64,000 bases of DNA, from the NCBI GenBank assembly GCA_001618615.1, contig LKHB01000181.1:2210-66209 (forward strand). Reading direction: 5' to 3'. Shown piece after piece: positions 10,290-30,315 of this stretch. The position numbers were made by a program, and so were the translations under genes. Position 1 is the first letter of the stretch; each line of letters opens with the position of its first letter. This stretch comes from Candidatus Fermentibacter danicus. GTDB lineage: Bacteria; Fermentibacterota; Fermentibacteria; Fermentibacterales; Fermentibacteraceae. The notes beneath the pieces are model-generated. The model had not been told where the DNA came from and did not search any database. It worked only from the letters and a program-made list of their open reading frames with translations.

Positions 10290-11615
10290 ATGGAAGTCTA
10301 TGGGTGCCAGATGAATGTGAGCGACTCGGAGATCATCCGGGGAATCCTGGAGAGCGCCGGATACAGGCAGGTGGACGATCCGGGTGACGCAGACGCAGTC
10401 CTGGTCGTGACCTGCGCCGTTCGTGAACACGCGGAGACGAGAGCCATAGGCAGGCTGACCCAGCTCGGAGCGGGAACCGGCGGAGAGGGGCGTCCCGTCA
10501 CGGTAGTCTGCGGATGCGTGGCCCAGGAGCACGGGAGTTCCCTGCTGGAGAACTATCCGGCCATCGACATCGTGGTCGGACCCGACAGATACCTCGAACT
10601 TCCCGATCTTATCCGGCGCGGCAGGGCCTCCGCGACCGGGTTCTCGCCCCACCACTACGAAGGGGTCGAGCCCGTCAGGAAAACCTTCCCGCGCTCCTTC
10701 GTGACCGTCATGCGAGGCTGCGACAACTTCTGCAGCTACTGCATCGTGCCTCACGTGCGGGGACGGGAGAGGAGCAGGCCCGCCGCCGACATCCTGCGCG
10801 AGGTGTCCGGGCTCGTCTCCTCGGGTTACGGGGAGATCACGCTGCTGGGCCAGAACGTGAACTCCTACCGCTCCGGGGAGCTGCGTTTTCCGGAACTCCT
10901 CGGGATGGTTTCGCGGGAGGCCCGCGGAGCCTGGGTCAGATTCGTCACCAGTCATCCCCGCGATCTCACCGATGACCTCGTGGAGACGATGTCGCGGTGC
11001 CGCAACGTCTGCCGCCAGATCCACCTGCCCGTACAGTCCGGCAGCGACCGCATCCTCTCCGCGATGAACAGGGGCTATTCGAGGGCCGGGTATCTCGACA
11101 AGATCAGGAAACTCAGGGAGGCGATGCCCGGCATCGCCCTCTCGACCGACATGATCGCGGGATTCCCCGGAGAGAGCGAGGAGGACTTCGAACTCAGCGC
11201 TTCGCTTCTCGAAGAGGTCCGGTTCGACCAGGCCTTCCTCTTCAGGTATTCGGAGAGGGCCGGCACTCCCGCCGCCTCGATGGAAGGCTCCATACCCGTC
11301 GAAGTGAGGCTCGAAAGGCTTTCGAGGCTCCAGGAGATCCAGAGATCGATAACGCGCGCCTGCTCGGCCGCGCTCTCGGGTAGAGAGATGCCGGTACTCA
11401 TCATCGGACCCGGCGCAAAGCGCGGCCTTCTGCAGACCCAGGGCCGGACGGCGGGGAACAGAGTGGTGGTGTTCGAGGGCAGGCAGGCCGAGGCGGGGAG
11501 GTTCGTACTGGCGCGCATCGGCTCGAGCGACGGCTGGACGCACTTCGCGGATCTGGTACGCCCGCTCGGGACGGAGGAGGGTTTCGAGGCGTCGGAGTCA
11601 TGGCGCGAGTGTTGA
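10290..11615 (+). CDS. miaB: tRNA-2-methylthio-N6-dimethylallyladenosine synthase
   Basis: Track ORF 10245..11615. Likely start at MEVYGCQMN. Has the MTTase N-domain, a radical SAM CxxxCxxC (CDNFCSYC) and a TRAM domain, with full-length similarity to the MiaB family. Confidence 0.9.
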   Translation: MEVYGCQMNVSDSEIIRGILESAGYRQVDDPGDADAVLVVTCAVREHAETRAIGRLTQLGAGTGGEGRPVTVVCGCVAQEHGSSLLENYPAIDIVVGPDRYLELPDLIRRGRASATGFSPHHYEGVEPVRKTFPRSFVTVMRGCDNFCSYCIVPHVRGRERSRPAADILREVSGLVSSGYGEITLLGQNVNSYRSGELRFPELLGMVSREARGAWVRFVTSHPRDLTDDLVETMSRCRNVCRQIHLPVQSGSDRILSAMNRGYSRAGYLDKIRKLREAMPGIALSTDMIAGFPGESEEDFELSASLLEEVRFDQAFLFRYSERAGTPAASMEGSIPVEVRLERLSRLQEIQRSITRACSAALSGREMPVLIIGPGAKRGLLQTQGRTAGNRVVVFEGRQAEAGRFVLARIGSSDGWTHFADLVRPLGTEEGFEASESWREC

Positions 11616-12637
11616 AACGGATCGAGAGAGCCTCCAGGAGGCTGCTCACCCGCCTCCTCAGGGGGCCGTCGCAATGTGCCGAATCCGATGCACCGCCTCC
11701 CGAGCCCTCGTCCATCCTCGTCACCAGGCCGGATTCACGGCTGGGAAACCTCGTCCTCACCCTGCCTCTCCTGGAAGGCCTCAGGAGCAGGTTCCCCGAA
11801 GCACGCCTGACGCTGCTGGCCAGCGACAGGTTCGCCGAGCTGCCCACCCTCATGGGATTCGACGTAATCCCTGTCGACAAGGCCAGGATGGCCTCGCACC
11901 CCTGGCTCTTCCCGGGGTTCGCGCGAAAGCTTCGCAAGCGTGGATTCGACTGTGCGATCGACGCTTCCCATCCGTTCGCGTTCTCACTGTCCGGGGCGCT
12001 GGTCGGCCGACTCGCGGGCGCCCGCACGAGGATAGGCTTCGCCTCGGGGGACTACGAGGGCTGGTACACCCATGCGGTCCCGGGCCTCTCGAAAAGCGAC
12101 CACGAGAGCAGGACCATCCACAGGCTGGGGTCGGTATGGCCGCGTTGGCCGGCATATTCGCCGCCACTTCTCCGCACGCCCGGACGGAGCCGATGCCGCT
12201 CCATAGGGGTCCATGTCGGGGCCAGCAGGGGGAAGGTCTATCCGCCGGACAGGTTCTCCAGGCTCGTCGCCGGGCTTGCCGGCATCGGGAGGGTCATCCT
12301 GTTCTGGGGAAGCGAAGGCGAGAGAAACCTCGCCGTCCGGCTGGCGGCGGATGCGGCCGCCTCGGGACTGCAGACCGTCACCGTGTCGGATCCGCTGTCG
12401 ATCGCGGGTCTTCTGGACTCGTTCGCCGGTCTCGATCTGCTGGTGACTGCGGACAACGGGCCCATGCACGTCGCCTACGCCCTGGGAACGCCGGTGATAG
12501 CTCTCTTCCGCGTGCAGAACCATGACAGGTTCGGGCCCCTGTCGGAGGGATCGGTCGTCCTCTACGATCCGGACGGCCCGGATCCGGAGAGAGTCATCCG
12601 CGCAGTGAAGGCTGTCCAGGCCGGGATCCGTCCCTAG
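11600..12637 (+). CDS. Glycosyltransferase family 9 (LPS heptosyltransferase, RfaF/RfaC-like)
   Basis: 345 aa. ILVTRPDSRLGNLVLTLPLLEGLRSRFPEARLTLL, the paired Rossmann layout and the C-terminal DNGPMHVAYALGTPVIALF motif are typical of GT9 heptosyltransferases. Confidence 0.8.
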   Translation: MARVLKRIERASRRLLTRLLRGPSQCAESDAPPPEPSSILVTRPDSRLGNLVLTLPLLEGLRSRFPEARLTLLASDRFAELPTLMGFDVIPVDKARMASHPWLFPGFARKLRKRGFDCAIDASHPFAFSLSGALVGRLAGARTRIGFASGDYEGWYTHAVPGLSKSDHESRTIHRLGSVWPRWPAYSPPLLRTPGRSRCRSIGVHVGASRGKVYPPDRFSRLVAGLAGIGRVILFWGSEGERNLAVRLAADAAASGLQTVTVSDPLSIAGLLDSFAGLDLLVTADNGPMHVAYALGTPVIALFRVQNHDRFGPLSEGSVVLYDPDGPDPERVIRAVKAVQAGIRP

Positions 12638-12927
12638 CCGTCCTCTTCTTCTTCTTCGTTTTCGTCGTCGTCTTCGTCGTCTTCTTCTTCCTCGTCCCGG
12701 GCGTCCGCGTCCGGTGCGCCGGCGGAGTCCGACAGTCCGTCGAGGATGTTCTTCACGGACATCTCGGTAGCCGCCAGGCGGCTGCGGAGGTCTCCTATCA
12801 GCTCCGCCGCCCGCTTCACCTTCGACTCGAGTTCGTCGAGAGGGCAGTCCTCCCTGCCGACCTCGTCCACGAGCCGGTTCAACTCCTTCATCTGCTCCTC
12901 GAAGGAAGCGCTTTTCCTCCTGCCCAT
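12634..12927 (-). CDS. xseB: Exodeoxyribonuclease VII small subunit with a poly-acidic C-terminal tail
   Basis: Track ORF 12634..13134. Likely start at MGRRKSASFEEQMKELNRLVDEVGREDCPLDELESKVKRAAELIGDLRSRLAATEMSVKNILDGL, which is the XseB helical-hairpin consensus. It is followed by DARDEEEEDDEDDDENEEEEEDG. It lies directly downstream of xseA. Confidence 0.8.
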   Translation of the reverse strand: MGRRKSASFEEQMKELNRLVDEVGREDCPLDELESKVKRAAELIGDLRSRLAATEMSVKNILDGLSDSAGAPDADARDEEEEDDEDDDENEEEEEDG

Positions 12928-12992
12928 CCCTCTCCCGTCGGCCGCGATGCCTGCGGAGCAGCGGCCTGAAGACCCGGCGGACATGGAGTCCG

Positions 12993-14399
12993 TCAGGATG
13001 CCCCGTCCATATCGACTTCTACCGCTCTCGCCGAAATGCGGCCGTCCCTCAGCCTTATGCCAACCCGATCCCCCGCCTCGACGCAGGAGGCGGAAGTCAC
13101 CAGCCGGCCTTCTCCGTCCGTGACGATGGCCCATCCCATTTCCAGCATCCTGGCGGGGTCGCGTGCTGCGACGAGGGCGGAAAGGGCATCGAGTCTGCGT
13201 CTCGACACATCGATGAGTGCCCCGCTGGCTGTTCTAAGCTGCCGGGAGCAGTCATCCAGCGACAGACCGCGCTCCGGGAACCGAACGAGGCAGCCCGGCG
13301 GCCCCAGTCTCGCAGCCATTCTTTCCAGTTCACGCCCGGCCCTCGAGGTACTCCTTCCGGAAGCGGCGCGGAGCCATGCCTCGTTCCTGTCGAGAGCGCC
13401 GGAGACGCTCCTGGAGAACATCGAAACTCCCGAGGCCAGCATCGAGGCGGCGGCTCGAATCCTGTGCCCCTCGGATCTGAGTCTGGGAAGCGATGATGCC
13501 GCCATGTCCCTCGCGGCGTCGTCGATCGACTGGGCCGCATCGGCCAGCCTGTCCACAAGGATGGAGGCCGCGTGTGTCGGGGTCTTGGCCCTCGTATGGG
13601 CGATGAAGTCCGGGAGCGTGAAGTCGACTTCGTGGCCGATGCCCGAGACTACAGGGGCGGGGAATGAAGCGATGGCCCGCCCTATGGGTTCCGAGTCGAA
13701 CCACGAGAGGTCGGTTGCTGATCCGCCGCCCCTCGTTATCACCAGGACATCCAGCGAGGGTTCCAGGGCCAGGCGCGACATGGCCTCGACCACGGTTCTC
13801 ATGGTTTCGGCGCCCTGCATCTGTGCAGGGTGGAGCAGAACCTCGAAGGGGTAGCCGCTTTCGCGCAGGGTCGTGAGAAAGTCCTCGAGAGCGGCCGAGC
13901 CGGGTGCGCTTACCAAACCTATCCTGAGGGGCAGCGCCGGGAACGGCAGGGTGCGGTTCCGCTCTGCGAGGCCCTCGCGGGTGAGTTTTGCCAGCAATTC
14001 CCTGAGGCGGGTTTCCGACGAGGCGCCGAAGCTCCCGGGATCGAAGGCCTCCACCACGAACTGGAAGCGTCCGGACTGGGGCCAGATGTCCACGCGGCCG
14101 AGTATCCGGACATCGATTCCCTCGGATGGGTCGAAGACCATCCCGGCTCTGGCGAAGTCGCGCTGCACCACGGTACGGGCGCCGGCGAAGAGTACGCAGT
14201 CTATGGAGGCCTGCGGCCGGGAGGCGGAATCCGTGTTGTCCACGAGCTGGAAGTAGGTATGTCCCCGGCTGTTCGCCTGGATTCTGCCGGCGAGCGTTCC
14301 CCTCAGCCAGATCGGGTACGGGTATACCGTCCGGAATAGCTCCCTCACTCTCGTGTTGAGTTCGAGTACGGTGAGGTCGCGGCCGGATGCGGCGGCCAA
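12993..14399 (-). CDS. xseA: Exodeoxyribonuclease VII large subunit
   Basis: 468 aa. It has an N-terminal OB-fold, a central catalytic region (ITRGGGSATDLSWFDSEPIGRAIASFPAPVVSGIGHEVD) and a C-terminal helical domain. Confidence 0.9.
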   Translation of the reverse strand: MAAASGRDLTVLELNTRVRELFRTVYPYPIWLRGTLAGRIQANSRGHTYFQLVDNTDSASRPQASIDCVLFAGARTVVQRDFARAGMVFDPSEGIDVRILGRVDIWPQSGRFQFVVEAFDPGSFGASSETRLRELLAKLTREGLAERNRTLPFPALPLRIGLVSAPGSAALEDFLTTLRESGYPFEVLLHPAQMQGAETMRTVVEAMSRLALEPSLDVLVITRGGGSATDLSWFDSEPIGRAIASFPAPVVSGIGHEVDFTLPDFIAHTRAKTPTHAASILVDRLADAAQSIDDAARDMAASSLPRLRSEGHRIRAAASMLASGVSMFSRSVSGALDRNEAWLRAASGRSTSRAGRELERMAARLGPPGCLVRFPERGLSLDDCSRQLRTASGALIDVSRRRLDALSALVAARDPARMLEMGWAIVTDGEGRLVTSASCVEAGDRVGIRLRDGRISARAVEVDMDGAS

Positions 14400-18954: not shown

Positions 18955-19632
18955 TCACTGGATCAGGAACGTGATGAGCACGCTTCCGCCGTTGTCCAGC
19001 GCATCCTCCGTGTGGTCCAGTCCCAGGGCCTCCACCCTCGCGCCGAGTGGGAGATCGAGCGTCAGCGTATCGCCGGGCAGCGCGGCGGCGGCCCATCTGC
19101 CCTCGTTGGGGCTGTGCACGACCAGGACCACCAGGCCGTCATAGCCGCTCAGGTTGTCGTCCTGGACGAGCACCGTGTACCTGCCGGCCGGGAGGGAGAT
19201 GTCGCGCGCCCTGTCCATGACCCCGAGATGATAGGCGGCCGATACCGTCATGCTGGGTGTGAGCTGGGGGATGAACGGAAGGAACCTGACCGAATCCACG
19301 GAGGTGGGAGTCGTCGCCACCACGAGGACCGAGTCCGTAAAACCGGGATCGGGGTGCCATGTGACGCTGCGCCCGGTCGCCGTGGGCTCTCCGGTTTCCG
19401 AGAAGCGGCCCGCGGAGCATGTCCACACGGCCGATCCGCCGTCCGGCATCAGCGTGGAGAGGTATGTGGTGCCCGATCCGGAGGCATCGATCGAGGCTAT
19501 GATCCCGGAATCGTCCGATCGCTGTCCGAAGCTCTCGGACACAATCCAGACGCCCAGGGCCAGGATGGGGATGACGAAGGGGAGGGATATGGCGAGGAAT
19601 GATCTGATCCTGTTCGAGGTTCTGCTTCTCAT
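18955..19632 (-). CDS. Hypothetical secreted or membrane-anchored protein
   Basis: Track ORF 18955..19905. Likely start at MRSRTSNRIRSFLAISLPFVIPILALGVWIV (signal anchor). Composition suggests a beta-rich domain. No family recognised. Confidence 0.4.
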   Translation of the reverse strand: MRSRTSNRIRSFLAISLPFVIPILALGVWIVSESFGQRSDDSGIIASIDASGSGTTYLSTLMPDGGSAVWTCSAGRFSETGEPTATGRSVTWHPDPGFTDSVLVVATTPTSVDSVRFLPFIPQLTPSMTVSAAYHLGVMDRARDISLPAGRYTVLVQDDNLSGYDGLVVLVVHSPNEGRWAAAALPGDTLTLDLPLGARVEALGLDHTEDALDNGGSVLITFLIQ

Positions 19633-20196
19633 CTCGTCCTCCCGCAGGCGGTCCGGCGCGCCCCGAGGATGAGGCGCGCGGCCTCCGCAAGGTCGCCGGC
19701 GCGGAAATCCGGCTCGGATTCCGGCCCGCACAGCCTGGACTGCACGGCCCCCCTGCCGGTCATCACGAGTATGGTCGTGAGCCCGGTTCTGCGGCCCAGC
19801 TCCATGTCGCTCACGGCGTCTCCTACGAGCCATCCGCCGGGCGGCAGGCCCAGTTCGCGCCTGGATGCGTCCACGAGACCCGTCGCGGGCTTTCTGCACG
19901 AGCATCCCTCATCGGGTCTGTGCGGGCAGCAGTAGACTCCGGAGAGCCTTCCTCCCAGGGCCCTTATCCTCTCGGACATGAGCGCGTTGATCTCCTCGAC
20001 GACGGAGGCTTCGACGAGCCCCCTCCCGATGCCGGACTGGTTGGTGACCACTATCACGGGATGCCCGGCCGTCGAGAGCGATGCGGCCGCCTCCAGGGAG
20101 CCGGGGATGGGTATCCAGGCATCGACCGACCTGACGTAGGCCGGGACGTTCTCGTTTATCACCCCGTCCCTGTCCAGGAAGACCGGTTCGAGCACG
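19629..20196 (-). CDS. gmhB: D-glycero-beta-D-manno-heptose-1,7-bisphosphate 7-phosphatase (HAD-IIIA)
   Basis: The motifs FLDRDGVIN, VVTNQSGIGRG and the Zn-binding CCPHRPDEGCSCRKP are GmhB hallmarks. The start is probably a GTG near 20196 (VLEPVFLDRDG). Confidence 0.8.
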
Positions 20197-21132
20197 TCAG
20201 CGGATCCTCCCGCGATGATACTCGACAAGCTCCGAGAGCCCGTCCTCGAAGCTGATGACTGGCTTCCATCCGAGGTCTTCGGCCGCAAGCCCGGCGTCGA
20301 GGGATATCTTCAGTATCTCCTCGGGCAGGGCGGGCCCCTGTTCTGGAAGGAGATCGGTGCCGACGAAGCGCCTTATCAGCGAGTCCAGTTCCTTCACCGA
20401 CCTTCCCCTTCCCCAGCCGATGTTGAAGATGCGTCCGGAGATGCGGTGGTTGCCGATATCCATGGCCAGGAGGTTCGCACGCGCGATATCCCTGACGTGG
20501 ACGTAATCCCGGAGTTGCTCCCCGTCGCCGTTGATCCTCGGACGCCTGTTCTCCAGGTATGCCAGGCTGAAGATCGCCGTTACACCAGCCTCGCCGTGGG
20601 GATTCTGCCTCGGTCCGTAGACGTTCGGATACCTCAGGACGACATAGTCGAGCCCGTACAGGTGCCTGTAGAGGAAGAGGTAGTGTTCGACGGTATGCTT
20701 GCTTATGCCGTAGTGGCAGATGGGGTTCACGGGATGGTCCTCCCTGACGGGGATCGAGGAGGGCTCGCCGTAGACCGCTCCGCCGGTCGATGCGTAGACG
20801 ACCCGCTTCACCCCTCCATCCCTTGCGGCTTCGAGGAGGGAGATCGTTCCGAGGATGTTGACGTCCGCGTCGAAGAGGGGTTCCCTCACCGATCTGCGGA
20901 CGTCCATCTGGGCGGCGTGATGACACAGGATGTCGAATCCACCCGTGCGTACCGCTTCTGCGGCCTCGGGGCTCCTGATGTCCATCTCCAGGAACGAGGC
21001 GCGAGGGTTCAGGTTCTCCCTGAAGCCGGTGGAGAGGTTGTCCATTACGTGCACTTCATGGCCGTTCTCGACGAGGAGATCGGCTACATTGGAGCCGATG
21101 AAGCCGGCCCCGCCGGTTACGAGTATTCTCAT
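20197..21132 (-). CDS. NAD-dependent epimerase/dehydratase (GalE/extended SDR family), possibly a nucleotide-sugar epimerase of the heptose or LPS pathway
   Basis: 311 aa. MRILVTGGAGFIGSN Rossmann motif and the YxxxK catalytic motif (HYGISKH). Confidence 0.85.
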   Translation of the reverse strand: MRILVTGGAGFIGSNVADLLVENGHEVHVMDNLSTGFRENLNPRASFLEMDIRSPEAAEAVRTGGFDILCHHAAQMDVRRSVREPLFDADVNILGTISLLEAARDGGVKRVVYASTGGAVYGEPSSIPVREDHPVNPICHYGISKHTVEHYLFLYRHLYGLDYVVLRYPNVYGPRQNPHGEAGVTAIFSLAYLENRRPRINGDGEQLRDYVHVRDIARANLLAMDIGNHRISGRIFNIGWGRGRSVKELDSLIRRFVGTDLLPEQGPALPEEILKISLDAGLAAEDLGWKPVISFEDGLSELVEYHRGRIR

Positions 21133-21227: not shown

Positions 21228-22241
21228 GTGTCGATGAAAGTACTGGTCTTGTGCGGAGGGCGGTCCGTCGAGAGGGAAATCTCGATGGAGTCGTCCCGTT
21301 TCGTGCTGGAGGCACTGTCGAAGGCCGGGCATTCGACCGTCACCGCGGTCATCGGCCATGACGGCGTCTGGACGGTCGACGGGGGGCGGGCGACGATCGA
21401 CGCGTCCTCTCCCAGATGGCTGCTCATGCGCGAGGGAGCCGAGGTCCCCTTCGACGTGCTCTTCCCGGTTCTTCACGGTACATTCGGCGAGGACGGCACC
21501 GTCCAGGGCCTCTGCGAGATGGCCTCATGGCCCTGTGCGGGGGCCGGGGTGATGGCTTCCGCCGTGGGCATGAACAAGATCGTCCTCAAGAGGCTCGCCG
21601 CGGGCGCCGGCATCCCCGTGGTCCCGTGGATGGAGCTGATGCGCGGCGCGGAATCGCCTTCTCCCTCGGCGATGCTGGACAGCCTAGGGCTTCCGGTGTT
21701 CGTGAAGCCGGCGCGACTCGGATCGAGCGTGGGGATATCGAGGGTCGACAGCGAATCCGACCTGGCCGGCGCTCTGGAACTGGCCTTCGGGCATGACGAA
21801 CTCGTCCTCGTGGAGAAGGCGGTTCCTTCTCCGAGGGAGATCGAGATCGGCGTGATAGGAACGGGCACGGCCGTCCACACCACGGTTCCCGGCGAGATCG
21901 AGCCCGGCAGGAGCTGGTACGACTTCGAGGCCAAGTACGCATGCAAAGGTTCCAGACTGACGATTCCGGCGTCCCTCGATCCGGAGACTGCCGCGGAGGC
22001 GCGGGACCATGCCGCCGCCGTCTTCCGCCTCCTGGGAGGCAGGGGATTCGCCAGGGTGGATTTTCTTCTCGGTGAGAGCGGTCTGTTCCTCAACGAGATC
22101 AACACGATTCCAGGTTTCACGGCCATCAGCATGTTCCCGAAGCTCTGGGAGGCCTCGGGGCTGGATTCCACCGGACTGATGGACGCCATAATCTCGGAGG
22201 CGCTTTCGAGGCCCGCGACCGGGCTCTGGGAGGAGCGGTGA
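21228..22241 (+). CDS. ddl: D-alanine--D-alanine ligase
   Basis: 337 aa. MKVLVLCGGRSVEREISMESS, the ATP-grasp motifs and the C-terminal EINTIPGFT. Confidence 0.9.
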   Translation: MSMKVLVLCGGRSVEREISMESSRFVLEALSKAGHSTVTAVIGHDGVWTVDGGRATIDASSPRWLLMREGAEVPFDVLFPVLHGTFGEDGTVQGLCEMASWPCAGAGVMASAVGMNKIVLKRLAAGAGIPVVPWMELMRGAESPSPSAMLDSLGLPVFVKPARLGSSVGISRVDSESDLAGALELAFGHDELVLVEKAVPSPREIEIGVIGTGTAVHTTVPGEIEPGRSWYDFEAKYACKGSRLTIPASLDPETAAEARDHAAAVFRLLGGRGFARVDFLLGESGLFLNEINTIPGFTAISMFPKLWEASGLDSTGLMDAIISEALSRPATGLWEER

Positions 22242-23275
22242 GCCGGTTCAGGGTCGATCTGAGAAGCGACACCGTCAGCGTCCCCTCCCTGGGCATGCGC
22301 AATGCCATGGCCCATGCCGACGTGGGCGACGATGTGTTCGGAGAGGACCCCACGGTGAACGCCCTCGAGGAGAGGGTCGCCAGGATGCTGGGCTTCGAGC
22401 GGGCCGTCTTCATGCCCAGCGGGACGATGTCCAACGGCGTAGCCGTCCGGGTGCTGGCCGAGCCCGGCGACGAGGTGATCTGCGGAAGCAGAAGTCATGT
22501 CTACATCTACGAGGGAGCGCAGGCTGCGCTGAACGCGGGGATACAGCTCCACAGGATCGACGAGAGGCCGGAAGGTCTTCCCGATCCCGCGGATATGGAC
22601 TCCGCCCTGGCCAGGTCGGACGACATACACTTCGCGCCCCGGAGGCTGATCTGCCTGGAGAACACGCACAACACCCTCGGAGGCAGGGTGATCCCACGGG
22701 AAAGGCTCGATGCCGTCAAAACAGTGGCAGAGGCGCACGGCGCAAGACTGTTCCTCGACGGCGCCCGGCTGTGGCATGCAGCAGTGGCCCTCCGGTGCGA
22801 CATAGCGGAACTGTGCGAGGGATTCTCGATGGTGACGGTCTGCTTTTCCAAGGGGCTGGGCTGTCCCGTGGGCTCCGTGCTCGCGGGAGGCGCGGAGAAT
22901 GTCGACAGGGCGCGATGGTTCCGCAAGCGGCACGGCGGCGGCATGAGGCAGGCCGGGATCCTGGCCGCGGCCTGCCATTATGCTCTCGATCACAATCTGA
23001 AGAGGCTGGAGAGGACTCATACCTGGGCGAAGACTCTCGCCAGGGCCGCCGCCGCATCTCCCATACTCGAGGCCGATCCCGAAAACGTCGAGAGCAACAT
23101 CGTACTGGTGCGCTCCCCGGGCATAAGCTCGGAATCGGTCGTCGCCACGCTGGGCACGCTGGGCATCGGCTGTCTCACGATGGGTCCATCGAGTCTGAGG
23201 CTCGTGACACATCTCTCACTTGCGGACAGGGATGTCAGGTACGCTGCGGATATCCTGGCCACATTCGGAGGATAG
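22238..23275 (+). CDS. ltaE: Low-specificity L-threonine aldolase (PLP-dependent)
   Basis: 345 aa. PSGTMSNGVAV, and the PLP-lysine motif CFSKGLGCPVGSVLAG is typical of threonine aldolases. Confidence 0.8.
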   Translation: MSRFRVDLRSDTVSVPSLGMRNAMAHADVGDDVFGEDPTVNALEERVARMLGFERAVFMPSGTMSNGVAVRVLAEPGDEVICGSRSHVYIYEGAQAALNAGIQLHRIDERPEGLPDPADMDSALARSDDIHFAPRRLICLENTHNTLGGRVIPRERLDAVKTVAEAHGARLFLDGARLWHAAVALRCDIAELCEGFSMVTVCFSKGLGCPVGSVLAGGAENVDRARWFRKRHGGGMRQAGILAAACHYALDHNLKRLERTHTWAKTLARAAAASPILEADPENVESNIVLVRSPGISSESVVATLGTLGIGCLTMGPSSLRLVTHLSLADRDVRYAADILATFGG

Positions 23276-24187
23276 ATGAGGGTCGGAGTAATAGGAGTGG
23301 GCCATCTCGGCTACCATCATGCCAGGATACTGCGATCGCTCGCTTCGGAGGTGACGGTTTTCGACGCCAGGGAGGCCAGGACCGCGGAGGTCGCCTCGGA
23401 ACTGGGCGTCGCGGCCGCTTCCTCCGCATCCGAGCTGCTTTCCAGGGTGGACGCCGTGGTGGTAGCTTCGGACACGGTCACCCACCACGACGTCGTTATG
23501 CAGGCTCTTGCCGCCGGGTGCCACACGCTGGTCGAGAAGCCGATCGCCTCGGATTCCATCCAGGCCGCCCGTCTCGCATCGGAAGCCGAAAGGCTCGGTC
23601 GCGTGCTCGCCGTCGGCCACGTGGAGCGCTTCAACCCCGCCGTCGTCGCGGCCGGGGCGCTGATCGACTCGCCCATGTTCGTGGAGGCACACAGGCTCGC
23701 GCCCTTCAAGCACAGAGGGATCGACGTGTCGGTGGTCATGGATCTCATGATCCACGACATCGATCTGGTGCTCTCGTTCGTCAGATCGCCGGTCAGCGAG
23801 GTTCACGCCTCGGGCGTCGCCGTCCTCACCGACAAGGTCGACATCGCCAGCGCACGCGTGATGTTCGCCAACGGGGCCGTCGCCAACCTGACCGCCAGCC
23901 GCATCTCACGGGAACCGATGAGGAAGCTGCGCTTCTTCCAGCAGAGGGGCTACGTGTCGATAGATTTCGCCGGAAGAACCGTGGAGGCGTTGAAGGTGGA
24001 CGGCGAATCCATTCGCCCTGTTCCGGTCGTCGTCACCGATGCCGATCCCCTGACCTGCGAGCTGCAGGATTTCCTGTCGGCCTGCGGGGGAGGGGGGCGA
24101 CCGCTCGTCGGAGCCGCGGAGGGGGTCCGCGCCATAAGGGCCGCCGAACTCATAACCTCCAGGATGACGACCGCCGGATCGGCCTGA
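23276..24187 (+). CDS. Gfo/Idh/MocA-family NAD(P)-dependent oxidoreductase
   Basis: 303 aa. MRVGVIGVGHLGYHHARIL Rossmann and the EKP motif (LVEKPIA). Its stop overlaps the lpxB ATG (TGATG). Confidence 0.8.
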   Translation: MRVGVIGVGHLGYHHARILRSLASEVTVFDAREARTAEVASELGVAAASSASELLSRVDAVVVASDTVTHHDVVMQALAAGCHTLVEKPIASDSIQAARLASEAERLGRVLAVGHVERFNPAVVAAGALIDSPMFVEAHRLAPFKHRGIDVSVVMDLMIHDIDLVLSFVRSPVSEVHASGVAVLTDKVDIASARVMFANGAVANLTASRISREPMRKLRFFQQRGYVSIDFAGRTVEALKVDGESIRPVPVVVTDADPLTCELQDFLSACGGGGRPLVGAAEGVRAIRAAELITSRMTTAGSA

Positions 24188-25284
24188 TGCTCCTTTTCGT
24201 CTCTGCGGGCGAGCCATCGGGCGATCTCAGGGCGGCCGAGCTCTGCAGGGAGCTGTCCGCCAGGTCTCCCGGCATCGGTTTCTTCGGGCTGGGCGGGGAT
24301 GACATGGAAGCCTCGGGTGTGGACCTCTCGGCTCATCTCGAGGAATTCTCGGTGATGGGATTCTCCTCCGTGCTGAAATCGCTAGGCAGGATACTCTCAC
24401 TCGAGAAGCGGCTCAGGAGGGAGTGCCTCGAACGCAGGCCGGATGCGGTGCTGCTCGTGGACTATCCCGGCTTCAATCTCAGAATGGCGCGCTGGGCGTC
24501 CCGCAGGGGATTCCCCGTAGTCTACCACATCTCCCCCCAGTTCTGGGCCTGGGGCGGCTGGCGGGCGCGAGGCATGGCCAGGCATGTCGATCTCGTCACG
24601 ACGCTGTTCGAGTTCGAGGCCGGCTTCCATGCCGCTCTGGAGGTCGATGCCGTCTGGTGCGGACACCCTCTGGTCGAGTCGATCCCCCGTCCCTCGCCCG
24701 GCGGCGGGGATATCGCACTCCTGCCGGGCAGCCGGCCGGACGAGGTCGAGAGGCTCATGGAGCCGATGCTGGGGTGCGTGGAACTCCTCAGGCGCGCCGG
24801 AGACCGGCGGGAGGCTGTGGTGGCGGTTTCGAGAACCGTACCCGGGGCGCTCTACTCGAAGGCCTCCGCCCTGGGCTGCAGGCTCGTGGAGGGCACGTCG
24901 GCGGCGCTTTCGAGCGCCAGGGCGGCTCTGGTCTGCTCGGGCACGGCCACGCTCGAAGCCTCCCTGCACGGAGTACCGTTCGTGCTGATGTACAGGACAT
25001 CCCCATTGAACTACGGTATAGCCAGGCTGCTCGTTCGCGGCGTGGACAGGATCTGTCTCGCCAGCATCGCATCCGGCAGGACCGTCGCCCCGGAGCTCAT
25101 CCAGGGTGATGCCACCGCGGAAAAGGCGTTCGATGCGGTGCTTCCGCTTCTGGGCGACACACGCGAGCGGCGGGATGCATTGGAGGCCGCAGGCGCCGTA
25201 CGCGATGCGCTGGGGCCTCCCGGAGCGGCCGGGAGGGCGGCGGAAGCCATCCTCAGGAAGCTGCAGGAGATGAACGTTGTCTGA
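24187..25284 (+). CDS. lpxB: Lipid-A-disaccharide synthase
   Basis: The C-terminal part of track ORF 22771..25284 starting at MLLFVSAGEPSGD (the LpxB N-terminal signature). GT-B fold with PGSR and related motifs. The upstream part of that track ORF is an out-of-frame artefact. Confidence 0.85.
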   Translation: MLLFVSAGEPSGDLRAAELCRELSARSPGIGFFGLGGDDMEASGVDLSAHLEEFSVMGFSSVLKSLGRILSLEKRLRRECLERRPDAVLLVDYPGFNLRMARWASRRGFPVVYHISPQFWAWGGWRARGMARHVDLVTTLFEFEAGFHAALEVDAVWCGHPLVESIPRPSPGGGDIALLPGSRPDEVERLMEPMLGCVELLRRAGDRREAVVAVSRTVPGALYSKASALGCRLVEGTSAALSSARAALVCSGTATLEASLHGVPFVLMYRTSPLNYGIARLLVRGVDRICLASIASGRTVAPELIQGDATAEKAFDAVLPLLGDTRERRDALEAAGAVRDALGPPGAAGRAAEAILRKLQEMNVV

Positions 25285-27121
25285 CCTGGTTTCGAAGGAT
25301 CGCGGTTTCGCCGGCCTGATCCTGCTCAGGCTCCTCATGGCGAGCTGGAGGGTGGACTACAGGAGGCCTCCGGGCGGGCGGACGGGCAGGCCCAGGGGCA
25401 GGCCGGTGCTCTACTGTCTCTGGCATGCGCGGCAGCTTCCCCTGATGCTCAGCCACAGGCGCGAAGGCATCACGACCCTGATAAGCCTGCACAGGGACGG
25501 CGACTATGTAGCGAAGGTCGCCAAGCTCCTTGGCTTCTCCGTGGTACGCGGTTCGAGCACCAGAGGTGGAGCAGCGGCTCTCAAGCGCATGGCGTCCGTC
25601 CTCAGGTCCGGTACGGATTGCGCGATAACCCCCGACGGTCCACGCGGGCCCGCCTTCAAGGCGAAACCCGGGCTGGTCCTGATATCCAGGCTGGGGCGAA
25701 GGCCTGCGGTTCCCATCGCAGCCTCCGGCTGCCCCGCCCTGGTATTCGGCTCCTGGGACTCCTTCCGCCTGCCGCTTCCCTTCGCACGCATGACGATTGT
25801 CGAGGGCAGGCCCATCCCTCCATCTCCTCCCCGGATGACCCCGGAACAGGCCGCACTCCATGTCGAACGCGAGATGGCAAGGGTCACGGGGATGGCGGAT
25901 TTCCTAGCCTGCACTCAGGGCAGACTGTTCGAGAGGGTCGCAGGCGCGGCCGGCAGGATGCTGGGCTTCGCCGCACAGGCGGCGCTGATTGGAAGACCCG
26001 GGAACGAGAGGCTCGAAAGGCGCGGAATCGTCCCGTCGAGAAGCGACAGACCGGTCGTGCTGCACGGATCGTCGGCGGGGGAGGTCAACGGCATTCTCCC
26101 GCTCGCCGGGCACCTCGCCTCCCGCGGCCTTCCCGTCCATCTCACATGCTTCACCCCGGCGGGCAGGGAGGCTGTTTCGAGATCGGGCCTCCCGGGGTCG
26201 TTCCTCCCCCTCGACTCGCCCGTGTTCGTGGAGAGATTCCTGGAATCGACGGCCCCCCGGGCGCTCGTGATAGCGGAGACGGAGATATGGCCCAACCTCC
26301 TCATGGGCGCCCTTCTCAGATCGGTGCCCTGCATCGCGGTGAACGCCAGGCTCTCGGAATCCAGCCTGAGGAACTACCGGCTGCTCGCCGGCCGTCGGAT
26401 CGGCAGGCTTTTGTCGTGCTTCTGCGCGATCCAGTGCCGGACTCCTGGAGATGCTGAGAGGTTCGAGTCCCTCGGCGTCGATCCTTCCGTGATCGAAGTC
26501 ACGGGCGACACCAAGGCCCTGCGCGATCCCGGTGATCCCCCCGCCGGATGGTCGTCGAGGTTTTCGGGCTGCGGCCCGGTTATTGTCGCAGGATCGACGA
26601 GGCCCGGCGAGGAGAGGGCCGTAGCCCTCGCTTCACGGAAGGCCGGTCTCTTCCCGGTGATAGCGCCGAGGCATCTCGAGAGGCTCGGAGAAGTGGCCGA
26701 CCTGCTCCGCTCCGAGGGTTTACGCACGAAGCTCTGGTCCGAGGGCGGACCCGCCTCCGGCGGTGACTGCATCCTGTTGGACGAGAGAGGGATACTCGCC
26801 CGTCTCTACGGTTGTGCGGATGTTGCGTTCGTGGGCGGCACCATCGCCCCCTTCGGAGGGCACAACGTCATGGAGCCGCTCCTCAGAGGCGTCCCGGTCG
26901 TCGTCGGACCCAGTCACGGGAGTTTCGAGGCGCTCGTCCAGGAAGGCGTAAGGATCGGGGCGGTGCGGGTAGCCGACGAGGACGGTCTAGCGGACGCATT
27001 CCACGCAATGGCCTCGTGCGGGCTCGATCGCTCGATCATAAGAAGTCTCGGAGCCTCCGGCGGCAGAGAGGCGCTCGACAGGTTCGTCGCGGCTCTGGCC
27101 CTCGCGGGGATCGTGATCTGA
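25277..27121 (+). CDS. waaA: Fusion protein: N-terminal DUF374 (lysophospholipid acyltransferase-like) domain plus 3-deoxy-D-manno-octulosonic-acid (Kdo) transferase
   Basis: 614 aa. Residues ~1-200 (LYCLWHARQLPLML...ITPDGPRGPAFKAKPGLVLIS) resemble DUF374. Residues ~230-614 form a KdtA GT-B domain (VLHGSSAGEVNGILPL..., ...GGHNVMEPLLRGVPVVVGP). Confidence 0.8.
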   Translation: MSDLVSKDRGFAGLILLRLLMASWRVDYRRPPGGRTGRPRGRPVLYCLWHARQLPLMLSHRREGITTLISLHRDGDYVAKVAKLLGFSVVRGSSTRGGAAALKRMASVLRSGTDCAITPDGPRGPAFKAKPGLVLISRLGRRPAVPIAASGCPALVFGSWDSFRLPLPFARMTIVEGRPIPPSPPRMTPEQAALHVEREMARVTGMADFLACTQGRLFERVAGAAGRMLGFAAQAALIGRPGNERLERRGIVPSRSDRPVVLHGSSAGEVNGILPLAGHLASRGLPVHLTCFTPAGREAVSRSGLPGSFLPLDSPVFVERFLESTAPRALVIAETEIWPNLLMGALLRSVPCIAVNARLSESSLRNYRLLAGRRIGRLLSCFCAIQCRTPGDAERFESLGVDPSVIEVTGDTKALRDPGDPPAGWSSRFSGCGPVIVAGSTRPGEERAVALASRKAGLFPVIAPRHLERLGEVADLLRSEGLRTKLWSEGGPASGGDCILLDERGILARLYGCADVAFVGGTIAPFGGHNVMEPLLRGVPVVVGPSHGSFEALVQEGVRIGAVRVADEDGLADAFHAMASCGLDRSIIRSLGASGGREALDRFVAALALAGIVI

Positions 27122-27123
27122 AC

Positions 27124-28212
27124 ATGAAAAGACCCGATCTGGTCTTCAGGAGCATCGCAGAGCGGCGCGGGGGGTGGCGTTTCGCCGGGATGGCCCTCAG
27201 CCCCGCCGGGGCGGTCTTCGGGCTCGCCGCAAACCTCAGGAGGAGGGCGTATTCGCTGGGGCTCGGCCGGAAGCTGCGCGCCTGCGTTCCCGTGGTGAGC
27301 GTGGGGAACATCGAAGTGGGCGGCATAGGCAAGACCCCGGTCACGGTATGGCTGGCCAGGAGGCTGGTCAGCGCCGGGTTCGAGATCGCGGTGGCGGCGA
27401 GGGATCTCAACCGGCGGTCGGGTCCGCCTCTGAACGCATCCCTAGGGGCCTGGTCTTCAGATTCCCCTCCCTCCGACGAAGTCCTGATGCTGGCGAAACA
27501 GCTTCCCGGCTGCAGCGTGTTCGCCGGGCCCTCGAAGGCCCAGGCGGCCGTCAGGGCCGCGGCGGAAGTCTCGCCCGACCTGGTCCTGGTGGACGACGGG
27601 TTCCAGCATCTCACGCTGCACCGGGACATGGACATAGTCGTGCTGGACTTCGAACATCCGCTTGGAACCGGAGGCGTCATCCCCGCCGGCACTCTGAGGG
27701 AGTTCCCCTCGGCGCTGTCCGCCGCCGACTGCTTCTGGGTGAACCGGGTGCCGGCCGGACGCTCTCCGGAATGGCTCACGAGGACTCTCTCGCTGTTCTC
27801 CACCAGGGCGTCCGTCGTGAACAGCCGTCCGGTGCCGGTCGCGCTCGAGATGCCCGGAGGCGGCAGCGTCGATCCGAAGGGTCTCAGGGTGGTGGCTTTC
27901 TGCGGGATAGGCCAACCCTCCTCCTTCCGCACGACACTGGCGGAGGCGGGATGCGAGACCGTGCATTTCCAGGACTTCCCCGATCACCACGTCTTCACCG
28001 TGGCGGAGCTGGTAGCCCTGGAGGAGAAGAGGAAGGCCCTGAAGGCGGACCTGCTGGTGACGACCGAGAAGGATGCGGTCAAGCTGGGCGAACCGGGAAT
28101 CAGGCTTAACATCTGCGCACTCAGGATCGAACTGGACGTTTGGGGCGGATCGGACAGATTGCTGGAAGACATCGCCGGACTGGTCCGGGAAGGCGGGAAG
28201 CGTGAACCGTAG
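27124..28212 (+). CDS. lpxK: Tetraacyldisaccharide 4'-kinase
   Basis: Internal start MKRPDL of track ORF 26812..28212. GNIEVGGIGKTP matches the LpxK P-loop signature. Confidence 0.85.
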   Translation: MKRPDLVFRSIAERRGGWRFAGMALSPAGAVFGLAANLRRRAYSLGLGRKLRACVPVVSVGNIEVGGIGKTPVTVWLARRLVSAGFEIAVAARDLNRRSGPPLNASLGAWSSDSPPSDEVLMLAKQLPGCSVFAGPSKAQAAVRAAAEVSPDLVLVDDGFQHLTLHRDMDIVVLDFEHPLGTGGVIPAGTLREFPSALSAADCFWVNRVPAGRSPEWLTRTLSLFSTRASVVNSRPVPVALEMPGGGSVDPKGLRVVAFCGIGQPSSFRTTLAEAGCETVHFQDFPDHHVFTVAELVALEEKRKALKADLLVTTEKDAVKLGEPGIRLNICALRIELDVWGGSDRLLEDIAGLVREGGKREP

Positions 28213-29785
28213 ATGCGACGTGCTCGTGATAGGGGGAGGGCTGGCCGGCATGGCCTGTGCGCTGGAGCTGCCCTCCTCCATGAAGGTCATACTGATGAGC
28301 AAGATCGAGCTTCCTACGGGAAGCACGAGCCTGGCGCAGGGAGGGATCGCCGCACCGGTAGGAAGCGACGACAGCACCGAACTCCACCTCCAGGACACGA
28401 TCAAGGCCGGCGGAGGAATGGTCGATATCAACGCCGCGAGGGAAATAATCTCCCGCGGTCCCGATCTGATCCGAAAGCTCGCGGGCTGGGGCATACAGCT
28501 CGAGGGCGCCGGCGGCGGGACGGGCTCCATGGAGGGCGGGCACAGCAGGCGAAGGATCCTGCACTACCTCGACAGGACCGGGCGATGGATAAGCGAAGGC
28601 CTCATAGGGGCATGCCGGTCCAGGGAGAACATCGAGATCATGGAGGGGGCCTTCGCCATAAACCTCATCACAGCCTCGCGCGAGGAACTCTCCCTGGCAT
28701 CGGGACATGGTGACAGGTGTCTGGGGGCGTATGTCCTGGTCGACGGCGAGGTTCATACCGTACTCGCTTCGGAGACCGTCATAGCCACCGGCGGCGCCGG
28801 GAAGGTGTACCGCTACACGTCCAACGACGACTGGGCCACGGGAGACGGCATAGCGATGGCCTGGCGCGCCGGACTGACAGTCCGCAACATGGAGTTCTAC
28901 CAGTTCCATCCCACCTGCCTCTATCACAAGGACAGGCGGAACTTCCTGATCACCGAGGCTCTCAGGGGAGAGGGGGCCATGCTCCTGAACCTGGACGGCG
29001 AGAGGTTCATGGATCGTTTCGATCCCGTGCGGATGGAGCTGGCTCCGAGGGATGTCGTAGCCAGGGCGATAGATTCCGAGATGAAGCGTCTGGGACACGA
29101 CCATGTCGTTCTGGACGCCAGGGCGCTCGGCAGGAAGGCGCTGGAGGAGAGATTCCCGGAGGTCACGGAGGGTGTGATGTCAGTAGGCATCTGCCCGTGG
29201 GAAGAGCCGATACCCGTCGTGCCCGCGGCGCATTACTGCGTCGGAGGGGTGGTGGCGGGTATCGACGGCTCCACCTCCATGAAGGGGCTCCGAGTCATAG
29301 GCGAGGCTGCCTCTACCGGCCTGCACGGCGCCAACAGGCTGGGCAGCAACAGCCTTCTCGAGGCCGGCGTGATGGGGATCGAGGCGGCCCGTTCGACGAC
29401 GGGTTCGATCGACCCGCTGCCGGCCGGGCTCTCGGTCCGCGACTGGTACTTCGGCAGGGCCAGGCCTCTGAGCGAGAGCGTCCTGATAGACCACGACTGG
29501 GCTGCGGTCAGGAGCACCATGTGGGACTACGTTGGGATAATCCGCACGGACCGCAGGCTCACCCGCGCCCTGCGCATCCTGGACGTCATCTCCCGGGAGG
29601 TCGAGGAGGACTACTGGTCGCTTCTGCCGCAGATGGATCTCCTCGAGCTGAGGAACCTCTGCGACGTGGCCGGGATCATCGTCAGGTCCGCCATCCTGCG
29701 GCGCGAGAGCCGCGGGCTGCATTACAACCTCGACTGTCCGGAGACCGTTCCACCGGGCAGGGACACTCTGATGACGAGGAACTAG
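28202..29785 (+). CDS. nadB: L-aspartate oxidase
   Basis: Starts with GTG as VNRRCDVLVIGGGLAGM (FAD dinucleotide fold). Succinate dehydrogenase/fumarate reductase flavoprotein family with the RHSRR-type motifs. Overlaps the lpxK 3' end by ~11 nt. Confidence 0.9.
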   Translation: MNRRCDVLVIGGGLAGMACALELPSSMKVILMSKIELPTGSTSLAQGGIAAPVGSDDSTELHLQDTIKAGGGMVDINAAREIISRGPDLIRKLAGWGIQLEGAGGGTGSMEGGHSRRRILHYLDRTGRWISEGLIGACRSRENIEIMEGAFAINLITASREELSLASGHGDRCLGAYVLVDGEVHTVLASETVIATGGAGKVYRYTSNDDWATGDGIAMAWRAGLTVRNMEFYQFHPTCLYHKDRRNFLITEALRGEGAMLLNLDGERFMDRFDPVRMELAPRDVVARAIDSEMKRLGHDHVVLDARALGRKALEERFPEVTEGVMSVGICPWEEPIPVVPAAHYCVGGVVAGIDGSTSMKGLRVIGEAASTGLHGANRLGSNSLLEAGVMGIEAARSTTGSIDPLPAGLSVRDWYFGRARPLSESVLIDHDWAAVRSTMWDYVGIIRTDRRLTRALRILDVISREVEEDYWSLLPQMDLLELRNLCDVAGIIVRSAILRRESRGLHYNLDCPETVPPGRDTLMTRN

Positions 29786-29787
29786 GC

Positions 29788-30315
29788 GTGAACCGGAGGA
29801 GGCTTTCCGGCGCCCTTCCCGCCGTAGCCGCCGCGGCGGCCCTGGCTGCAGGATGCGCCTCCACTCCGGTCTATACCGGGGGCGGGATCGACTGCAGGGG
29901 AGCCGCCTGGTCCGCCGGGGTGTCCTCCTCCGCAGGCGCCCCGGTCTCTGCAGACGACAACCGGATGATGGACATCATCGAAGCCTGGATCGGGACTCCC
30001 TACAGGTACGGCGGAGAGACGAAGAACGGCGTGGACTGCTCGGGCTTCACCCAGGCCGTGTTCCGCGAGATGGGTGTTTCGATCCCCCGGACCGCCAGCA
30101 CGCAGGCGGAGGCTGCGGAAAAGGTGCAGCCGGGGGATCTCAGGTTCGGAGACATCATCTTCTTCAACACTTCCGGCGGAGGCATTTCCCACTGCGGCAT
30201 CTACATAGGTGACGGGTTCTTCGTACATGCCTCCGCGAGAAGGGGAGTCGTGCGCCAGTCCCTTGCGAACCCGTACTACTTCAGCAGAATAGTGAGCGCG
30301 GGAAGGTTCCTCTGA
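29788..30315 (+). CDS. NlpC/P60-family lipoprotein (peptidoglycan endopeptidase)
   Basis: C-terminal part of track ORF 28717..30315. GTG start, lipoprotein signal (LAAGCAS). Catalytic Cys and His are in context (YRYGGETKNGVDCSGFTQAVF ... HCGIYIGDGFFVHAS). Confidence 0.8.
   Translation: MNRRRLSGALPAVAAAAALAAGCASTPVYTGGGIDCRGAAWSAGVSSSAGAPVSADDNRMMDIIEAWIGTPYRYGGETKNGVDCSGFTQAVFREMGVSIPRTASTQAEAAEKVQPGDLRFGDIIFFNTSGGGISHCGIYIGDGFFVHASARRGVVRQSLANPYYFSRIVSAGRFL

Follow-up and report, generated by a model that had tools for sequence, protein, structure and literature searches.

GnnA takes the first step from the normal lipid A sugar to its 3-amino counterpart. The Acidithiobacillus ferrooxidans enzyme, with the structures 7BVJ and 7BVK, is reportedly the subject of Sweet et al. 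2004 and Manissorn et al. 2020. Mesorhizobium loti, in which gnnA and the gene for the aminotransferase partner, gnnB, are unlinked, makes lipid A that contains 2,3-diaminoglucose (GlcN3N). The A. ferrooxidans enzyme oxidises UDP-N-acetylglucosamine (UDP-GlcNAc) to the 3-oxo sugar (PMC11446377). In Granulibacter bethesdensis the presence of GlcN3N in lipid A is established, and the putative gnnA shares 44% identity with its A. ferrooxidans counterpart (PMC8036547). In the flavobacterium C. canimorsus, gnnA and gnnB have both been identified, the lipid A is a GlcN3N-GlcN hybrid and the lipid A genes are mostly dispersed (PMC3342949). The Hyd24-12 genome paper, for its part, describes a diderm envelope with lipopolysaccharide (LPS) (PMC5030696). 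Here we analyse a 64,000-nucleotide stretch of the Candidatus Fermentibacter danicus genome (the window, with a GC content of 65%), in which a gene for a 303-residue Gfo/Idh/MocA oxidoreductase directly precedes lpxB. With a probability that we put at about 0.72, this protein is a GnnA orthologue, that is, an NAD+-dependent UDP-GlcNAc 3-dehydrogenase, whose gene is cotranscribed and translationally coupled with lpxB in an operon for lipid A and 3-deoxy-D-manno-octulosonic acid (Kdo) functions.

Identity of the 303-residue oxidoreductase

The gnnA-like gene occupies positions 23276 to 24187 (+) of the window. Pfam recognises the domains GFO_IDH_MocA (E value of 2e-24) and GFO_IDH_MocA_C3 in its product, which public annotation describes only as a "Gfo/Idh/MocA family oxidoreductase"; the assignment to GnnA therefore improves that annotation. 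In a phmmer search of all PDB sequences the top match was A. ferrooxidans GnnA (7BVJ/7BVK), with 209.6 bits and an E value of 6e-61 over the full length. The runner-up, a Gfo/Idh/MocA protein, scored 66 bits, and inositol dehydrogenases scored 40 to 47 bits. Identity to A. ferrooxidans GnnA is 40 to 42% over the full length. The predicted structure points in the same direction. The AlphaFold 2 (AF2) model of the protein has a predicted local distance difference test score (pLDDT) of 91.7, and a Foldseek comparison with the PDB placed five GnnA chains on top (template modelling [TM] score of 0.92, root mean square deviations of 1.9 to 2.5 Å, E value of 1e-35). The first structure other than GnnA, at 20% identity, followed with an E value of 2e-23, which is ∼12 orders of magnitude worse. 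The first-pass annotation had named the protein as a candidate GnnA, and these matches support it: among homologues with known function and structure, A. ferrooxidans GnnA comes closest, and not an inositol or glucose-fructose dehydrogenase.

Comparison with the NCBIfam hidden Markov models (HMMs) gave the best score, 174.7 bits, for NF040723, the archaeal UDP-GlcNAc 3-dehydrogenase, with residues 1 to 290 of the protein aligned to positions 1 to 294 of 302 in the model. The inositol dehydrogenase model iolG (TIGR04380) gave 97 bits and did not reach its equivalog cut-off of 355. As a control, A. ferrooxidans GnnA was scored in the same way and obtained 160.3 bits on NF040723 and 99.4 bits on iolG, and neither protein matched another 3-dehydrogenase model of NCBIfam. 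Thus, a UDP-GlcNAc 3-dehydrogenase model fits best, and the pattern of scores is the same as that of a genuine GnnA.

Judged by its sequence, the 303-residue protein belongs to the GnnA family, and both its cofactor site and its catalytic motifs are intact. The NAD site of the N-terminal Rossmann domain, G7xG9xxG12 together with D30, is present and invariant in the alignment, and the catalytic motifs E87-K88-P89 and D156-L-M-I-H160 are present. When family-conserved positions were defined as those at least 93% conserved among 84 family sequences, the protein kept 51 of 52 such positions, compared with 43 in A. ferrooxidans GnnA and 20 to 30 in two outgroups. Motifs of the GnnA group that are missing from the outgroups are GH-ERFNP, R140, R147, DLMIHD, N204/T206/S208-R209 and R216/R219. 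The family comprises 1858 representatives at the 50% identity level with E values of 1e-30 or better. In a neighbour-joining tree its members cluster mostly by the phylum given in their records; the Fermentibacter protein groups with those of Cloacimonadota and Bacteroidota and is widely separated from the outgroups.

The open reading frame (ORF) starts with ATG, which abuts the TAG stop codon (23273-23275) of the preceding gene and lies 4 nt downstream of a Shine-Dalgarno-like GGAGG motif read from the sequence (23267-23271, +). Its GC content at third codon positions (GC3) is 0.82, typical of real genes in the window. At the 3′ end, the sequence TGATG (24185-24189, +) contains both the TGA stop codon (24185-24187) and the ATG of lpxB (24187-24189), which have one base in common; this overlap couples the two genes translationally. 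The downstream gene (24187-25284, +) encodes a 365-residue lipid-A-disaccharide synthase, recognised by Pfam LpxB (E value of 7e-70) and by TIGR00215 (234.3 bits, above the cut-off of 190.25). The 303-residue ORF and its overlap with lpxB, both noted in the first-pass annotation, were thus confirmed from the sequence and by Pfam, and the lipid A/Kdo cluster described there (lpxB, DUF374::kdtA and lpxK) was recovered through Pfam and NCBIfam matches. The identical protein and gene order have been called independently on many assemblies (328 indexed blocks, the largest contigs reaching hundreds of kilobases).

Gene context and the aminotransferase partner

Relatives of the gene were collected in a scan of species-representative genomes, which yields at least 80 loci at 36 to 51% identity, none of those listed being from Fermentibacteria; the counts given here cover 82 loci, and statements about other phyla refer to the loci listed. 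These represent more than 10 phyla in all, among them Cloacimonadota, Ignavibacteria, Bacteroidota, Acidobacteriota, Gemmatimonadota, Eisenbacteria, Verrucomicrobiota, Planctomycetota, Omnitrophota, Nitrospirota and Desulfobacterota, together with Alpha- and Gammaproteobacteria. The gnnA homologue is linked to lpxA and/or lpxB in 44 of the 82 loci, which bears out the earlier statement that genes of this type are frequently embedded among lpx genes. The most complete arrangement, lpxD-...-lpxA-gnnA-lpxB-DUF374-kdtA-lpxK-nadB, was seen in L021, a locus from candidate Eisenbacteria; other phyla have bamA and skp upstream. About 24 relatives with ample flanks, mainly from Bacteroidota, Ignavibacteria and Cloacimonadota, have no lpx linkage.

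Within the phylum itself, four other Fermentibacteria lineages, one of which is Ca. Aegiribacteria MLS_C, encode homologues that are 52 to 58% identical to the 303-residue protein. All four have the order ddl, aldolase, gnnA-like gene, lpxB, DUF374::kdtA, lpxK, nadB and NlpC/P60, and in each of them (L005, L006, L089 and L090) the gnnA-like gene and lpxB overlap by 4 nt.

One variation on the lpx-linked arrangement was seen in Acidobacteriota, Nitrospira and some Verrucomicrobiota, in which lpxI separates lpxA from the gnnA homologue, so that the order is lpxA-lpxI-gnnA(-lpxB). This order was found at L009, L025, L032, L037, L041, L042, L044, L047, L049, L057, L064 and others, and for one representative Pfam verified the domains LpxI_N and LpxI_C.

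In 10 loci the immediate neighbour of the gnnA homologue is a gene for a GnnB-type DegT aminotransferase, and the three of these DegT ORFs that were scanned with NCBIfam are all DegT-family sugar aminotransferases. All 10 loci belong to the part of the tree formed by Proteobacteria, Desulfobacterota and Nitrospirota, which also holds the characterised GnnA. It is on this partner, and on the reach of the curated model, that the evidence weighs against assignment of the Fermentibacter protein to GnnA. Searches by tblastn with 11 GnnB-type queries, which were DegT sequences from gnnA-adjacent genes of other phyla, and with an ArnB probe that served as a detector only and recovered DegT ORFs in other loci, found no GnnB/DegT homologue in the 64-kb window. 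None was found either in ∼13 kb of added flanks (∼6 to 7 kb per side, for a total of ∼77 kb of genome covered), and lpxA is absent from the window and from these flanks. Nor does a DegT gene adjoin the gnnA homologue in any locus listed from the Fibrobacteres-Chlorobi-Bacteroidetes (FCB) group, the Planctomycetes-Verrucomicrobia-Chlamydiae (PVC) group, Acidobacteriota or Gemmatimonadota, many of which place the gene between lpxA and lpxB. For this reason, the equivalence of the FCB-type branch to GnnA rests on conservation and on the report from Flavobacteriaceae (PMC3342949). Finally, the 174.7 bits that the protein scored on NF040723 fall short of the cut-off of 450. We attribute this shortfall to the archaeal scope of the model, since the genuine bacterial GnnA from A. 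ferrooxidans misses the cut-off as well. The missing neighbour, in turn, does not refute the assignment, because gnnA and gnnB are unlinked in M. loti, and C. canimorsus has both genes in a genome with mostly dispersed lipid A genes.

The gene immediately upstream, at 22238-23275 (+), also encodes an enzyme dependent on pyridoxal phosphate (PLP), of fold type I. Pfam Beta_elim_lyase matches it with an E value of 1e-96, and the NCBIfam model for GntG-family aldolases gives 361 bits, above the cut-off of 230. Its best PDB matches are L-allo-threonine aldolases, 3WGB at 268 bits and 1JG8 from T. maritima at 254 bits, and the GnnB probes produced a weak fold-level match to it (E value of 1e-4 over 145 residues). 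The Pfam, NCBIfam and PDB matches thus agree with the first-pass annotation, which had taken this enzyme for a threonine aldolase and not GnnB. The idea that it is GnnB or a substitute for GnnB was rejected as the favoured interpretation: it does not belong to DegT/DnrJ/EryC1 and is a canonical, ltaE-like L-(allo)-threonine aldolase. An aldolase accompanies gnnA only in Fermentibacteria, where its stop codon abuts or overlaps the start of the gnnA-like gene in all five lineages examined.

In a first alternative, the protein is a 3-dehydrogenase for UDP-GlcNAc or a related UDP-sugar that feeds another glycan, such as an O-antigen, the core or a surface-layer glycan with a 2,3-diacetamido sugar. 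The best HMM would fit this use, as it describes an enzyme of archaea, which are without lipid A, and so would the ∼24 relatives with no lpx linkage and the LPS core genes in the window (a GT9 heptosyltransferase, an HAD phosphatase and an epimerase). We nevertheless regard it as unlikely, given that translational coupling to lpxB is conserved across the phylum, that in many other phyla the gene follows lpxA (or lpxI) and precedes lpxB within the bamA-skp-lpxD-lpxA core cluster, and that no glycosyltransferase, acetyltransferase or aminotransferase of a diacetamido pathway lies beside the gnnA-like gene.

The second alternative, which we consider similarly improbable, keeps a GnnA-like dehydrogenase and dispenses with the DegT-type GnnB. 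Another aminotransferase, in the extreme case the cotranslated aldolase, would act on the keto sugar, or the keto sugar would have a different fate. It draws on the absence of DegT genes near gnnA homologues in the FCB, PVC, Acidobacteriota and Gemmatimonadota loci, and on the position of the upstream PLP enzyme, which is conserved in five of five Fermentibacteria lineages examined. That enzyme is, however, a canonical aldolase, with 254 to 268 bits to solved aldolases and a curated model passed, and it stands beside gnnA in Fermentibacteria only. Its adjacency is weak evidence in any case, because the operon also holds the unrelated ddl and nadB. Moreover, M. loti is a documented case in which gnnA and gnnB are not linked, and both genes are reported in C. 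canimorsus. When all ORFs within 5 kb of gnnA were clustered across the loci listed, no alternative aminotransferase recurred beside the gene in other phyla; the clusters obtained were lpxA, lpxB, lpxI, lpxK, DUF374/kdtA, msbA-like, bamA, skp and lineage-specific housekeeping genes. The broader version of this proposal is less probable still: that the whole GnnA branch of FCB, PVC, Acidobacteriota and Gemmatimonadota employs a partner other than GnnB, for which the cotranslated aldolase would be the candidate in Fermentibacteria, or puts the 3-keto sugar to some other use in lipid A assembly.

In Cloacimonadota locus L011, asnS comes after the gnnA homologue and is itself followed by a class I/II aminotransferase-like ORF, identified by eye (12425-13642 of that locus, 406 residues); a threonine-dehydrogenase-like gene of the epimerase family precedes. 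This arrangement is probably coincidental, and it was not seen in L007, the other Cloacimonadota locus viewed in this manner.

Least credible of all is the chance presence in this operon of a generic dehydrogenase of the Gfo/Idh/MocA family for sugars or inositol, an interpretation for which the unrelated functions in the operon (ddl, ltaE and nadB) and the unspecific public annotation might be cited, and against which stand the iolG score (97 bits, cut-off 355), the PDB scores of inositol, glucose-fructose and anhydrofructose enzymes (at most 66 bits, against 209.6 for GnnA), the lead of ∼12 orders of magnitude in E value of the GnnA structures over any other and the recurrent linkage to lpxA and lpxB across phyla.

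Proposed pathway and surrounding genes

If the protein is GnnA, it would oxidise UDP-GlcNAc at C3. Specifically, the 3-hydroxyl group would be converted to give UDP-3-oxo-GlcNAc with the help of the lysine of the EKP motif and the histidine of the D-x-x-x-H motif, which are typical of Gfo/Idh/MocA enzymes. A putative PLP-dependent aminotransferase of the GnnB type (DegT), encoded elsewhere in the genome, would then convert the keto sugar to the 3-amino derivative UDP-GlcNAc3N, which LpxA, LpxC and LpxD would acylate. From these precursors LpxB, LpxK and KdtA, the products of the genes directly downstream, would build a lipid A with amide linkage of the position-3 acyl chains in one sugar or in both. 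The selectivity of LpxA would determine whether the backbone consists of GlcN3N throughout or is a GlcN3N-GlcN hybrid. On the basis of this gene set, we infer that Fermentibacter may make a GlcN3N lipid A.

Proteins identical to those of named public assemblies place the window in Ca. Fermentibacter daniensis, an uncultured bacterium from anaerobic digesters that belongs to the candidate phylum Hyd24-12 (Fermentibacteria). The operon there has the order ddl-ltaE-gnnA-like-lpxB-DUF374::kdtA-lpxK-nadB. Its co-directional block opens with ddl (21234-22241, +), a D-Ala-D-Ala ligase gene with Pfam Dala_Dala_lig_N/C domains that corresponds to the gene call at L001 7959-8966 on the public contig; it is an operon neighbour and not a lipid A gene. 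Downstream of lpxB, whose 3′ end it overlaps by 8 nt, is a gene for a 614-residue DUF374::KdtA fusion (25277-27121, +), with Pfam DUF374 at residues 60 to 126 and Glycos_transf_N at residues 247 to 414. NCBIfam Kdo transferase models match it below their cut-offs, and the same gene call is found on public contigs. The next gene, lpxK (27124-28212, +), encodes a 362-residue tetraacyldisaccharide 4′-kinase, with the P-loop GGIGKTP in the translation and PF02606 (LpxK) on the gene call L001 13849-14937. The nadB gene for L-aspartate oxidase (28202-29785, +; Pfam FAD_binding_2 and Succ_DH_flav_C; gene call L001 14927-16510) overlaps the 3′ end of lpxK by 11 nt and, like ddl, is an operon neighbour and not a lipid A gene. 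Taken as a whole, the region 21234-30315 intersperses lipid A genes with ddl, the threonine aldolase, nadB and an NlpC/P60 peptidase, in an order conserved across Fermentibacteria. Three further ORFs, at 21473-23212 (-; 579 residues), 22771-25284 (+; 837 residues) and 27036-27932 (-; 298 residues), were rejected as genes, being shadow or read-through frames of high-GC DNA that overlap real genes.

Two features of this layout recur elsewhere. Each of the five Fermentibacteria lineages examined has DUF374 fused to the N terminus of its Kdo transferase; in relatives from Gemmatimonadota, Eisenbacteria and Nitrospira, DUF374 stands as an ORF of its own, after lpxB and before kdtA or lpxK. This pattern suggests that DUF374 takes part in the assembly of lipid A or Kdo. 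The nadB gene follows lpxK in L021 and lies slightly further downstream of lpxK in L069; since the linkage is also present in these two loci, it is older than the phylum Fermentibacteria.

Near the operon, a further LPS-related gene encodes a GT9 glycosyltransferase of the heptosyltransferase type (11600-12637, +). Divergent from the operon are genes for an HAD phosphatase annotated "Hydrolase_like" (19629-20195, -) and an NAD-dependent epimerase (20197-21132, -), both of which may serve heptose or core biosynthesis.

If our assignment holds, the lipid A of Fermentibacteria would carry amide-linked acyl chains at position 3. A lipid A of this kind has greater chemical robustness; in the cases known, it is a weaker stimulus for TLR4 and has been linked with resistance to cationic peptides. 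The place of the gene within the core cluster for lipid A suggests the same for many other little-studied phyla, in which GlcN3N-type lipid A may be common. The enzyme family and the pathway have been known since 2004, and hence the finding extends their distribution to an uncultured phylum without adding new biology.

Comparison with described enzymes

The two-domain fold and the framework of EKP and D-x-x-x-H motifs are shared with IolG, 1,5-anhydrofructose reductase and scyllo-inositol dehydrogenase, but identity to IolG and other sugar-acting Gfo/Idh/MocA enzymes is only 15 to 25%. The archaeal UDP-GlcNAc 3-dehydrogenase described by NF040723 stands closer, as the best curated HMM and with the same predicted reaction, although the score lies far under the equivalog cut-off of 450. 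The archaeal enzyme functions in acetamido-sugar synthesis for surface glycans and not in lipid A synthesis. With A. ferrooxidans GnnA the Fermentibacter protein shares a length of ∼300 residues, the GxGxxG motif with D30, the EKP motif, the DLMIHD motif and a place beside lpxB in a lipid A cluster. The two differ in that the Fermentibacter protein belongs to an FCB-type branch and that its window contains neither gnnB nor lpxA. In the clusters of the proteobacterial type that were recovered, from Proteobacteria, Desulfobacterota and Nitrospirota, a GnnB-type DegT gene lies directly beside the gnnA homologue, unlike the arrangement in the Fermentibacter window. In this last respect the locus resembles those of M. 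loti and G. bethesdensis. All three have, with no adjacent gnnB, a putative gnnA at similar identity to the A. ferrooxidans enzyme; the two species, in contrast to Fermentibacter, have a known lipid A chemistry and a located candidate gnnB.

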